Shown piece after piece: positions 33,059 through 36,970 of a stretch of DNA of 47,224 nt. Below the pieces are notes generated by a model. That model had not been told where the DNA came from. It worked only from the letters and a program-made list of their open reading frames with translations, and made no database searches. This DNA is from Escherichia phage ev099, in the sequence record NC_049953.1; one strand, written 5' to 3'. Both the position numbers and the translations under genes were made by a program. Position 1 is the first letter of the stretch. Every line of letters starts with the position of its first letter.

Positions 33059-33191
33059 TTTTGGGTACTCCTGGCTGATTAAGTATGTCGATAAGGCGTT
33101 TCCATCCGTCACGTAATTTACGGGTGATTCGTTCAAGTAAAGATTCGGAAGGGCAGCCAGCAACAGGCCACCCTGCAATGGCATATTGCAT
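33051..33191 (-). CDS. cIII: CIII FtsH/HflB inhibitor (46 codons here)
   Basis: [46 protein letters not shown] then TAA. Confidence 0.85.
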   Translation of the reverse strand: MQYAIAGWPVAGCPSESLLERITRKLRDGWKRLIDILNQPGVPKNG

Positions 33192-33263
33192 GGTGTGCTC
33201 CTTATTTATACATAACGAAAAACGCCTCGAGTGAAGCGTTATTGGTATGCGGTAAAGCCGCAC

Positions 33264-34990: not shown

Positions 34991-35144
34991 ATCTGTATGT
35001 TTTTTATATAGATTTATTTTTTGCAGGGTTGTGTGGCTTGGGAGGTGATCGAGAGATCAGAATTGCGTTGTTTAGTGAGTTGCACCTATTAATTTTAAAA
35101 TAAATACAATTGGTTATGTGTTTTTAGGTGGGGCGATCGTGAGG

Positions 35145-35171
35145 CAAAGAAAACCCGGCTCGGTGGCCGGG
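35145..35171 (-). terminator. rho-independent terminator immediately downstream of the NYN-domain gene, before OL
   Basis: Minus strand cccggccaccgagccggg hairpin followed by ttttcttt, 10 nt after the stop. Confidence 0.75.
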
Positions 35172-35180
35172 TTGATGGGA

Positions 35181-36038
35181 TTATCGTTTATTTCTTTGAT
35201 GTTTCTTTGCAGACTCAGCTTGAGTGTTTCCATACCTGCGTTTACCGCTATTGTTTTTTCCTCTAGGCTTGCCTTTTTTTCGATCTTCCCACCAGTCAGG
35301 TGCCGGGTCTGGCTCAACATGTAAAGCATCGGCAAGTCCTGATATCAAGCTGTATGACTGAACTCCATCAATGTGCTCTGACAGTGATGGGGTAACATTC
35401 TGTCTTAGTGGATCAAGAATAAAATCAATACCTTTAATTCTGGCGTGTTTGGCGGCAGGCACAAAGTCTGAGTCCCCAGCAACAAGGACAATTACATCAA
35501 CAAGTTTTTCATAAGCTAAAGTCGTGATATCCATCCCTAGCTTGATATCAACTTGTTTTTGTTTGATGTCATAGTAAAAATCATCATTTGTCAGTTCATC
35601 CCATTTTTTCGTTCCTTTCATCAGAGCATCAAGGGAGAATGTAGTTAGTTGCCATCGCTTATTATCAACAAGATTCCCTAATCTTAAGGCTGTTTTTCGA
35701 GTTTTTCTTAACTCTTCATGCAGCTCCGTTCTCAGAATATATGATTTTTCGAGTTTGAAATTCTTGCGACCAGGCGTCTTATTGCCAGGCTCAGGAAGTG
35801 GAAGGCGTGTTTGAATGTCGAGTGGTGGACAGTCATAGAAGTAAATTCTATAAAGCTCAAGCGGTTCCCTACGTTCTTGTGATTGACGTTTTCCATTAAG
35901 ATGGGAAAGAACCATTGACCATATTACTTTCATTATGCATTGCGCAGTCAGTTCATGCTCGGCGAAGTGTTTACGATGCGTAGCATGAACACGCTGCATG
36001 AAAAAACCCGCATCAATTAAAATTGCTGCTTTCTTCAT
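35181..36038 (-). CDS. NYN-domain (PIN-like) putative nuclease with basic C-terminal tail, occupying the rexA/rexB position
   Basis: 285 aa; KKAAILIDAGFF at N-terminus and DVIVLVAGDSDFVPAAK...GIDF core resemble NYN/LabA motifs; Lys/Arg-rich tail; located between cI and OL. Confidence 0.75.
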   Translation of the reverse strand: MKKAAILIDAGFFMQRVHATHRKHFAEHELTAQCIMKVIWSMVLSHLNGKRQSQERREPLELYRIYFYDCPPLDIQTRLPLPEPGNKTPGRKNFKLEKSYILRTELHEELRKTRKTALRLGNLVDNKRWQLTTFSLDALMKGTKKWDELTNDDFYYDIKQKQVDIKLGMDITTLAYEKLVDVIVLVAGDSDFVPAAKHARIKGIDFILDPLRQNVTPSLSEHIDGVQSYSLISGLADALHVEPDPAPDWWEDRKKGKPRGKNNSGKRRYGNTQAESAKKHQRNKR

Positions 36039-36046
36039 AAGAGTCC

Positions 36047-36107
36047 CAAAAAAATAGCCCAGAGCCGTTATGCAGATATTAACAATTGTCTGCGAACGGG
36101 GCTGGGC
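36047..36107 (-). terminator. long imperfect hairpin plus U-run between cI and the NYN gene start (intrinsic terminator or leader attenuator)
   Basis: Minus strand gcccagccccgtt...aacggctctgggc (13-bp arms, 11/13 paired) followed by tattttttt, about 12 nt upstream of the NYN ATG. Confidence 0.55.
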
Positions 36108-36118
36108 TTGGTTTAATT

Positions 36119-36147
36119 AATCTATGCCAAGTTGACTGTGCCGTCAA
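36119..36147 (-). promoter_or_regulatory. candidate sigma70 promoter for the NYN gene (TTGACG / 17 bp / TAGATT) overlapping a GTTGAC-N6-GTCAAC inverted repeat
   Basis: Motif spacing read directly from sequence on minus strand; unverified. Confidence 0.35.
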
Positions 36148-36165
36148 CATAAAACTTACTTCCTA

Positions 36166-36882
<717 letters not shown>

Positions 36883-36888
36883 TTAAAT

Positions 36889-36954
36889 CTATCACCGCAA
36901 GGGATAAATATCTAACACCGTGCGTGTTGACTATTTTACCTCTGGCGGTGATAA
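36889..36954. promoter_or_regulatory. OR3-OR2-OR1 operators with divergent pRM and pR promoters
   Basis: TATCACCGCAAGGGATA, TAACACCGTGCGTGTTG, TACCTCTGGCGGTGATA; pR TTGACT / GATAAT. Confidence 0.92.
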
Positions 36955-36970
36955 TAGTTGCATGTACTAA

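Follow-up and report, generated by a model that had tools for sequence, protein, structure and literature searches.

The window analysed here is a stretch of 47,224 nucleotides (nt) from Escherichia phage ev099 (NC_049953.1). It represents a lambda-like prophage whose minus strand carries cI, an open reading frame (ORF) for a NYN-domain protein of 285 amino acids, a terminator-like hairpin, pL and the N gene. Our subject is the leader between cI and the NYN gene, in which a predicted sigma-70 promoter is followed by a long hairpin and a run of seven U residues (U7). The hairpin appears to be an RNA class that Rfam 15 does not contain and whose specific partner is a mobile family of NYN nucleases. 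The NYN gene and the elements of its leader are as follows.

35181..36038, minus strand: gene for the NYN-domain nuclease, 285 amino acids (Pfam PF01936, AlphaFold model, invariant Asp residues).
36142..36147, minus strand: -35 element TTGACG of the NYN cassette promoter (promoter scan; TTGAC stands at the equivalent place in 32 of 34 distinct loci).
36131..36148, minus strand: inverted repeat GTTGAC-GGCACA-GTCAAC over the -35 element, with GTTGAC at 36148-36143 and GTCAAC at 36136-36131, a candidate operator (read from the sequence).
36119..36124, minus strand: -10 element TAGATT, separated from the -35 element by a 17-nt spacer (promoter scan and comparison of loci).
36111..36113, minus strand: predicted transcription start, about 7 nt past the -10 element and 3-5 nt ahead of the hairpin (from promoter geometry).
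36056..36108, minus strand: three-helix hairpin of 53 nt (folding, covariance model at 90.6 bits, covariation, MAFFT with RNAalifold).
36108-36102 with 36062-36056, minus strand: helix P1, AGCCCAG/CUGGGCU, 7 base pairs (bp).
36099-36095 with 36069-36065, minus strand: helix P2, 5 bp.
36093-36089 with 36076-36072, minus strand: helix P3, 5 bp.
36088-36077, minus strand: conserved 12-nt apical loop, CAAUUGUUAAUA.
36048..36054, minus strand: U7, separated from P1 by one A (36055); predicted point of intrinsic termination and 3' end of an RNA of about 65 nt (sequence; a T-rich tract is found in all aligned homologues).
36039..36047, minus strand: GGGACTCTT, a Shine-Dalgarno-like GGGA and a spacer ahead of the ATG (sequence; GGA follows the U-tract in most enteric homologues).

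The NYN gene starts with an ATG at 36038, so that the 9 nt of GGGACTCTT are all that separates it from U7. An earlier, sequence-only reading of this leader had described a TTGACG/17/TAGATT promoter overlapping a GTTGAC-N6-GTCAAC palindrome, a hairpin with 13-bp arms and a 25-nt loop, and U7 followed by the ATG within the gene's own 5' leader. The palindrome and the U7-ATG arrangement are present as described, the latter in a layout that is conserved in evolution, and the promoter is found where it was placed. The promoter agrees with the consensus at 9 of 12 positions (lambda pL and pR in the window reach 10 of 12), a match that taken alone is within chance, since the 3.4-kb region searched holds 4 such sites against 5.3 +/- 1.8 in shuffled versions; its position is nevertheless kept in homologues. 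The hairpin is well beyond chance, the 66-nt RNA folding at -25.0 kcal/mol against -11.0 +/- 2.5 for shuffled sequences (z = -5.6; 0 of 200 as good). Its arms, as delimited by the repeat finder (36056-36069 and 36095-36108), are 14 nt long, 86% complementary and 25 nt apart, they covary among homologues, and the 25-nt loop between them folds on into the third helix, P3. Like an intrinsic terminator, the structure has a G+C-rich helix (P1) followed by an A and U7, but it is no compact stem-loop: the 53 nt include two internal loops and the 12-nt apical loop, and the terminator scan missed it because only loops of 3-8 nt were allowed. A 23-codon ORF from the ATG at 36150 was set aside, as it starts upstream of the predicted transcription start.

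The product of the downstream gene combines the PIN-like fold, the profile match and the conserved acidic residues of NYN nucleases. PF01936 is its sole Pfam family (E = 6.8e-9; 36.8 bits against a cut-off of 24.2), and several Asp residues are invariant among homologues, including D9, D189 and D191 (GDSD motif). Its AlphaFold model (pLDDT 86.7) has its best structural matches, at a Foldseek probability of 1.0, in the LabA-like protein 2qip and the Marf1 NYN domain 5yaa. A sequence search against the PDB returned zero matches, and PADLOC-DB v2 returned weak partial matches only (HEC-09, E = 2e-4; NYN model, E = 1.4e-3).

Loci encoding NYN relatives were fetched from 80 genomic and 79 viral sources, and a covariance model of the hairpin (R1) was built from 11 sequences. 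All closer homologues fetched share one order of elements: a TTGAC-type -35, a -10, a long hairpin, a U-tract and the ATG. R1 matches directly upstream of the NYN gene, on the gene-sense strand, in all 71 viral loci whose protein is at least 46% identical, and upstream of it in 13 of the 14 genomic loci at that level (L005-L014, L016-L018); the remaining one, L015, shows this layout on visual inspection. Among the loci fetched, none in this NYN subfamily was without the RNA, and the hosts extend from Enterobacterales to Pseudomonas, Pasteurellaceae and Acinetobacter. Across 32 distinct sequences, 96.3% of the pair cells hold standard pairs, 13 of the 17 pairs have changed on both sides in compensatory fashion, and the covariation score is 0.424, against 0.211 +/- 0.013 in shuffled alignments (reached by 0 of 500) and no more than 0.14 with slid partners. 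As that alignment had been fitted to R1, the test was repeated with MAFFT and RNAalifold on 23 sequences, which recovered the same three helices with compensatory changes in 14 of 16 pairs. The R1 score is strongly asymmetric between strands (90 bits sense, 31 bits reverse), and G-U pairs occur only in the sense orientation, which indicates that the structure is formed by RNA, or by a single strand of that polarity.

The hairpin is also constrained in sequence. It is 89-95% identical where the NYN proteins are 69-78% identical, so that the RNA is more conserved than the protein; in Proteus phage Brookers, whose NYN protein is 74% identical, the hairpin is the only part of the spacer with a BLAST match in its DNA sequence (93.5%). 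Tatumella, Yersinia, Photorhabdus, Xenorhabdus and Proteus share a P2-P3-loop sequence that hardly varies, the apical loop motif is kept in the form AAU-N-GUUA, and the U-tract after P1 is kept in all aligned homologues. A terminator would not need so much conservation in P2, P3 and the loop, which suggests that a specific partner recognises them. Three simpler accounts of the apical sequence were rejected: mimicry of an anticodon loop (Asn GUU), since no 7-nt loop results from the closing pairs and the motif is variable; kissing of loops through the palindrome ACAAUUGU, which is not conserved in Proteus or Photorhabdus; and a likeness of the loop region to NYN codons 5-11, which is not conserved either. 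Against Rfam 15, the leader had no match at E<=1 in a search over 6 kb and none above noise at E<=10 in one on 161 nt, and 20 homologous loci gave nothing at the gathering score. We found no description of an NYN-leader RNA in the literature on NYN/DUF88 proteins with prophages, defence, RNA motifs or type III toxin-antitoxin (TA) systems. The element thus appears to be a widespread, covarying and sequence-conserved RNA class tied to one nuclease family, which goes beyond what the sequence-only reading had seen in it.

A promoter, a hairpin and U7 are also the anatomy of many Hfq-dependent small RNAs (sRNAs), and prophages of enterohaemorrhagic E. coli encode many sRNAs of this type (PMC4104026). 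The RNA of about 65 nt could accordingly rely on its U-tail and on Hfq or ProQ to act on mRNAs of the host or of phages, its place before NYN being secondary. We consider this very improbable. Its single-stranded 5' region amounts to just a few nt, its conservation tracks the NYN family in Acinetobacter, Pseudomonas and Pasteurella, where shared mRNA targets are implausible, and it is missing from the O157 Hfq-CRAC sRNA list, from which a filter dropped sites less than 100 bp from a coding sequence. Identity with Esr41 was likewise rejected, as that sRNA sits in SpLE1 and has an Rfam family of its own.

The position of the promoter is what gives the leader its character. When the upstream regions of 34 distinct loci were anchored on P1, TTGAC with a 16-18-nt spacer stood at the -35 place in 32, and the distance from the end of the -10 to P1 was 7-12 nt in most loci and 17-19 nt in those of the Pasteurellaceae type. 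The mean best promoter score was 9.3 against 7.1 in shuffled sequences, and scores of 10 or more occurred in 41% against 1.3%. Given this fixed distance, transcription should start 1-4 nt before the hairpin, which would then form the extreme 5' end of transcripts from this promoter and leave no room for an antiterminator; apart from the promoter, sequences upstream of the hairpin are not conserved among homologues, unlike in a classical attenuator or riboswitch, which would have a mutually exclusive antiterminator structure or a separate aptamer ahead of its terminator. The classical attenuator that had been proposed for this leader does not fit such a geometry, and release by lambda N, a route suggested for it, is unlikely because P22-like, Pseudomonas, Pasteurellaceae and non-phage settings also hold the cassette. 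The underlying idea of gated nuclease expression is still a fair description: with a terminator between promoter and gene, expression of the nuclease would depend on read-through.

A related possibility is that the terminator itself is the sensor, an aptamer in its stem allowing a small molecule or an infection signal to block termination and turn the nuclease on. The conserved nucleotides do lie inside the terminator hairpin, with no room for a separate expression platform, and a terminator-embedded aptamer has a precedent in the HMP-PP (thiS) riboswitch (PMC6478431). In that case, too, the gene under control is immediately preceded by an intrinsic terminator that holds conserved nucleotides. 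Our locus differs in having no metabolic gene context and in that the full terminator fold is the covarying structure. Covariation supports the complete hairpin as the conserved fold and no conserved alternative pairing was found; the leader of distant NYN subfamilies is organised differently, with an internal loop (AGUA/GA) that looks like a protein-binding motif; and the nuclease-less copies described below are hard to explain by a sensor acting in cis. We therefore regard a sensor as improbable, albeit less so than a base-pairing sRNA.

The inverted repeat over the -35 element recurs in exact form (TTGAC-N4-10-GTCAA) in 8 of the 34 distinct loci, where about 0.7% per locus is expected by chance, and near-exact versions occur in more. 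The exact cases, from Enterobacterales and Pseudomonas-type loci, are the window (36131-36148, minus strand), L005, L006, L118, L119, L128, L148 and L150. This recurrence suggests a candidate operator for a binding protein. A second TTGACA or TTGACT, possibly a tandem promoter, lies about 30 nt upstream of the main -35 in many enteric NYN loci (L093, L100, L102-L104, L006, L107); in the window, the end of cI takes up that position.

Two neighbouring features delimit the segment in which the leader and its gene reside.

36166..36879, minus strand: lambda-type cI repressor gene, the upstream neighbour (ORF list; LexA-family/cI annotation in matching records).
35152..35173, minus strand: terminator-like hairpin just past the NYN stop, at the tIMM position (terminator scan; lambda homology resumes there).

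Homology to lambda and other lambda-immunity prophages ends a few bases past the cI stop codon and resumes at about 35184 of the window, just past the NYN stop (lambda 35661-35826). The break on both sides indicates that the segment from about 36165 to about 35180 replaces rexA-rexB. The whole 127-nt spacer with NYN recurs at >=99% identity in phages 2B8, E212 and EC.P3 and in 48 Stx2a-converting phages. In the Stx2a phages the promoter-hairpin-NYN unit follows a 933W-type repressor and a DUF3024 ORF, and the last 18 nt of lambda cI (gaagagacgtttgggtga) stand ahead of the NYN cassette (L209 2181-2200). This scar marks the recombination that imported the cassette and shows leader and NYN gene moving as one unit. 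Homologues with the same upstream layout lie behind cI-like repressors in Tatumella and Proteus phage Brookers, and others have as neighbours an integrase, lysis-type genes, or a PIN/HTH or BrnT/BrnA toxin-antitoxin pair, or lie in ordinary chromosomal surroundings; the leader region is found in about 275 of 5426 complete E. coli genomes. On this comparative evidence the leader belongs to the NYN gene and not to cI, as the 5' part of a self-contained cassette.

These observations bear on the notion that the hairpin is there to punctuate the operon as a mere terminator of cI transcripts, with promoter-like hexamers that arose by chance. The hairpin would indeed stop transcripts reading on from cI (pRM/pRE), as the sequence-only reading had proposed, and the promoter match alone does not exceed chance. 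The unit travels with NYN and not with cI, though, the promoter position is kept in 32 of 34 distinct loci, and the lambda cI-rexA spacer has no homology to the NYN leader. Punctuation as the whole explanation is hardly credible, and because the unit also stands in settings other than lambda cI, the block to cI read-through is better seen as a side effect of the insertion site than as the reason for the element.

Further observations concern the surroundings. The standard lambda landmarks are in place in the window (pR at 36927-36955, plus strand; pL at 34956-34928 and an oop-type terminator at 37568-37541, both minus strand), as is the cIII thermoregulator (33146-33204, minus strand; RF01804, 88.5 bits). 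A P1/P7-type C4 antisense RNA with its a1/b1 targets (RF01695, RF03163; L011 5509-5708, minus strand) is found about 2.5 kb from a NYN locus of Pseudomonas yamanorum, which places a prophage immunity region nearby.

In more distant relatives (about 41-47% identity) from Acidobacteria, Xanthomonadales, Burkholderiales, Halomonas, Elusimicrobia and Bacteroidales, the start codon is likewise directly preceded by a promoter, a long hairpin and a U-tract. Their consensus differs: P1 takes the form GCCCCUGG/CCUGGGGC, often with a U-U mismatch, and an internal loop has invariant nucleotides in both of its strands, AGUA in the 5' one and GCCGA in the 3' one, which we take to resemble the sarcin-ricin/loop-E module. 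The hairpin lies about 20-110 nt upstream of the NYN start in these loci (L032, L040, L048, L052, L062, L064, L067, L073, L074, L079, L081, L082; for Bacteroidales, L038, L051 and L155-L160). A crude pattern for this leader matched 21 of 74 such loci, and this type, too, is absent from Rfam.

Copies of the hairpin that stand apart from any nuclease gene provide a different kind of evidence. Two virulent Chaseviridae phages, BSBP01 and vB_Shi_2KOFFS, carry a 98.4% identical copy and no NYN (L002 2501-2562, L003 3-63), and this copy spans the segment from ACCAAGCCC, the predicted +1, into the U-tract. The same slot in their relatives phiEcoM-GJ1, SA91KD and TH24 holds a tRNA-like gene of 92-95 nt (L164 845-939, L165 664-755, L166), which indicates that an RNA gene was exchanged for the hairpin. 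The tRNA-like gene is annotated as a tRNA-Arg that 'may contain an intron', and ARAGORN calls it Leu(cag) or Ser(gct). A second case is a P22/ES18-like prophage on a metagenomic contig, with an 89% identical copy that includes compensatory changes (L213 5970-6031, minus strand), NYN being absent within 14 kb; the copy is found some 250 nt downstream of a Q-like antiterminator gene, where Salmonella phage SI8 has its own late-leader terminator. The third is a phage scaffold from human faeces with a Pseudomonas-type copy (96.9%; L225 81-144, minus strand) that keeps part of the native promoter region and is followed by a non-NYN ORF (MNPGLNPAGPSYGIIPQV...), the contig ending 80 nt further on. 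A pattern scan of IMG/VR gave 41 contigs, essentially all of them NYN loci already fetched and one with a partly deleted NYN; among metagenome contigs found by pattern scan, NYN lay downstream of the RNA in 12 of 13. Scans for orphan copies of the L118-type RNA variant gave zero matches in phages, and those for the Pasteurellaceae type gave noise only.

Decay of the cassette is one-sided in the same direction. The RNA is kept while NYN is truncated or missing in prophage CP-933H of E. coli O157:H7 EDL933, in phage AU5Stx1 and in L151-L154. In CP-933H the leader is 100% identical and NYN is cut to 129 codons (L208 2663-3052), the cassette adjoining a truncated integrase and tRNA-Thr/proA. The many 100%-identical matches, of which one genome (EDL933) was inspected, suggest that an RNA without the full nuclease is common in O157:H7.

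Taken together, we tentatively propose that the leader works with a logic like that of type III toxin-antitoxin systems, an RNA of about 65 nt from a leaky terminator being made in excess and restraining its cognate NYN nuclease; we give this model somewhat less than an even chance, and favour it over each of its rivals. The sigma-70 promoter would start transcription a few bases before the 53-nt three-helix hairpin and U7, most polymerases would stop at U7 and release the short RNA, and a minority would read through into the nuclease ORF, whose ribosome-binding site comes right after the U-tract. Partial read-through of this kind would keep the RNA always in excess over the nuclease mRNA. The conserved apical part (P2, P3 and the loop) would be the surface recognised by the NYN protein, and the bound RNA would hold the nuclease in check. 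Once the supply of RNA falls, for example when an infecting phage shuts off transcription, or once the RNA is outcompeted, the nuclease would be freed, and its presumed toxicity would serve defence. This model accounts jointly for the universal U-tract, the sequence constraint, the one-sided decay and the nuclease-less phage copies.

Several considerations weigh against the model. The short RNA, its termination, the toxicity and the binding are all steps that we infer from sequence. The type III layout, with an RNA gene directly upstream of a nuclease gene on the same strand and a terminator between them, is present as sequence features only; no tandem or direct repeats, the hallmark of type III antitoxins, were found in 35000-36400 by repeat searches. 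The NYN fold lies outside the established type III toxin families, Pfam identifying the protein as NYN only and not as ToxN/CptN/TenpN, AbiF or AvcD, and the PADLOC matches are weak (E ~1e-4). With no repeats and a different toxin fold, the cassette should not be filed as a type III member, and would at most be a new variant with a similar way of working. Linkage alone would account for co-occurrence were the RNA no more than leader and promoter of the gene. The orphan copies are few, at three independent cases, for each of which a borrowed terminator or what is left of a deleted cassette is an alternative reading, and the P22-like one sits exactly where a plain terminator is expected. A large chromosomal clade among the more distant NYN relatives (Rhodanobacter, Dyella) appears to be without any such leader. 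The Hfq-CRAC list of Tree et al. for O157 Sakai contains no sRNA in prophage Sp1, an absence that the filter mentioned above renders uninformative.

Nearly as probable as our model is a leader that acts only in cis, in which a constitutive leaky terminator and 5' stem-loop limit the dose of the nuclease and give the NYN RNase a place on its own mRNA to bind or cleave in a negative feedback, the short RNA being functionless. The same architecture and conservation data fit this explanation, which predicts perfect co-occurrence as simple linkage and which the orphan at the P22-like late position suits as a plain terminator. Autoregulation through structured leaders or untranslated regions (UTRs) is also familiar from RNases, as in the rne 5' UTR, the rnc and pnp leaders and the Regnase-1 3' UTR. 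Those elements resemble the NYN leader in being conserved structures within the nuclease's own transcript, which the nuclease could recognise. They are not known, however, to be terminators, to yield a separate short RNA or to occur as orphan copies. A binding or cleavage site in cis needs no U-tract, yet the tract is present in all homologues; the virulent phages exchanged an RNA gene for exactly the segment from +1 to the U-tract; and one orphan, on the phage scaffold, keeps its own promoter-proximal sequence.

Known RNA-controlled modules provide partial parallels for the proposed RNA-nuclease pairing. In ToxIN, CptIN and TenpIN, as here, the RNA is encoded directly upstream of a nuclease, in the same orientation, under one promoter and on mobile elements, and a Rho-independent terminator between the RNA and protein genes would set the RNA excess. 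For ToxIN, the terminator between the RNA and toxin genes is said, in work by Fineran from 2009, to do just that, and phages reportedly escape ToxIN by carrying antitoxin-like RNA (Blower, in 2012), an escape that the Chaseviridae hairpin copies parallel. A terminator at this place is typical of such systems (PMC10511110). Their RNAs differ in being tandem repeats processed into pseudoknots, whereas ours is a single 53-nt hairpin; ToxN has a Kid-like toxin fold in place of the NYN/PIN-like fold, and inhibition and processing would apply here by analogy only.

Systems with antitoxins of other kinds are closer in some respects. In Clostridioides difficile, RCd22, which carries two abiF motifs upstream of a prophage abiF gene, lowers expression in cis and neutralises the toxin in cis as well as in trans (PMC12373285). 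The NYN leader is likewise a conserved structured RNA upstream of a prophage-borne gene, whose toxicity and defence role would follow by analogy, and the abiF motif, too, was first known only as a bioinformatic motif. The AbiF protein is Abi_2/HEPN-like and not NYN, there are two motifs against one hairpin, and the RNAs have no sequence or Rfam relation. AvcI is an sRNA antitoxin of AvcD that is lost on transcription shut-off, whereupon the toxin becomes active (PMC10511110); like the hairpin it is a single, non-repeat RNA encoded 5' of the protein gene. The AvcD toxin is a dCTP/dCMP deaminase, though, and no terminator is predicted between avcI and avcD (PMC10511110), whereas the terminator is the most obvious feature of the NYN leader. 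As to position, the cassette occupies the slot of lambda rexA-rexB, right after cI and before a tIMM-type terminator, where expression in the lysogen is possible; the slot after a prophage repressor is known for lysogen-expressed exclusion genes such as BstA (PMC8585504). Unlike rexAB, which encodes unrelated proteins, follows an unrelated 112-bp spacer and is co-transcribed with cI from pRM, the NYN cassette brings its own promoter, RNA and terminator.

A broader and less probable form of the proposal, which we regard as doubtful, is that NYN and the hairpin form an unrecognised, widespread RNA-protein phage-defence module of TA-like kind on prophages and islands in several phyla, with the RNA as antidote. 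Phages would then have captured the RNA by itself repeatedly as counter-defence, in the Chaseviridae tRNA slot, in the constitutive late leader of the P22-like phage, and in the scaffold with the Pseudomonas-type copy.

The hypothesis is directly testable, given a short RNA, a structure defined by covariation, and natural controls in the form of phages that have the captured hairpin or lack it and prophages whose NYN is truncated. If only the leaky-terminator leader is real, it would be a clean natural case in which a promoter-proximal terminator controls how much is made of an enzyme that may be dangerous. If our model is correct, a new RNA class and a new nuclease family would join the few RNA-controlled toxin and defence modules, and the gene found in place of rexAB in many lambda-immunity prophages, the Stx2a phages and CP-933H of E. 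coli O157:H7 among them, would gain a function.

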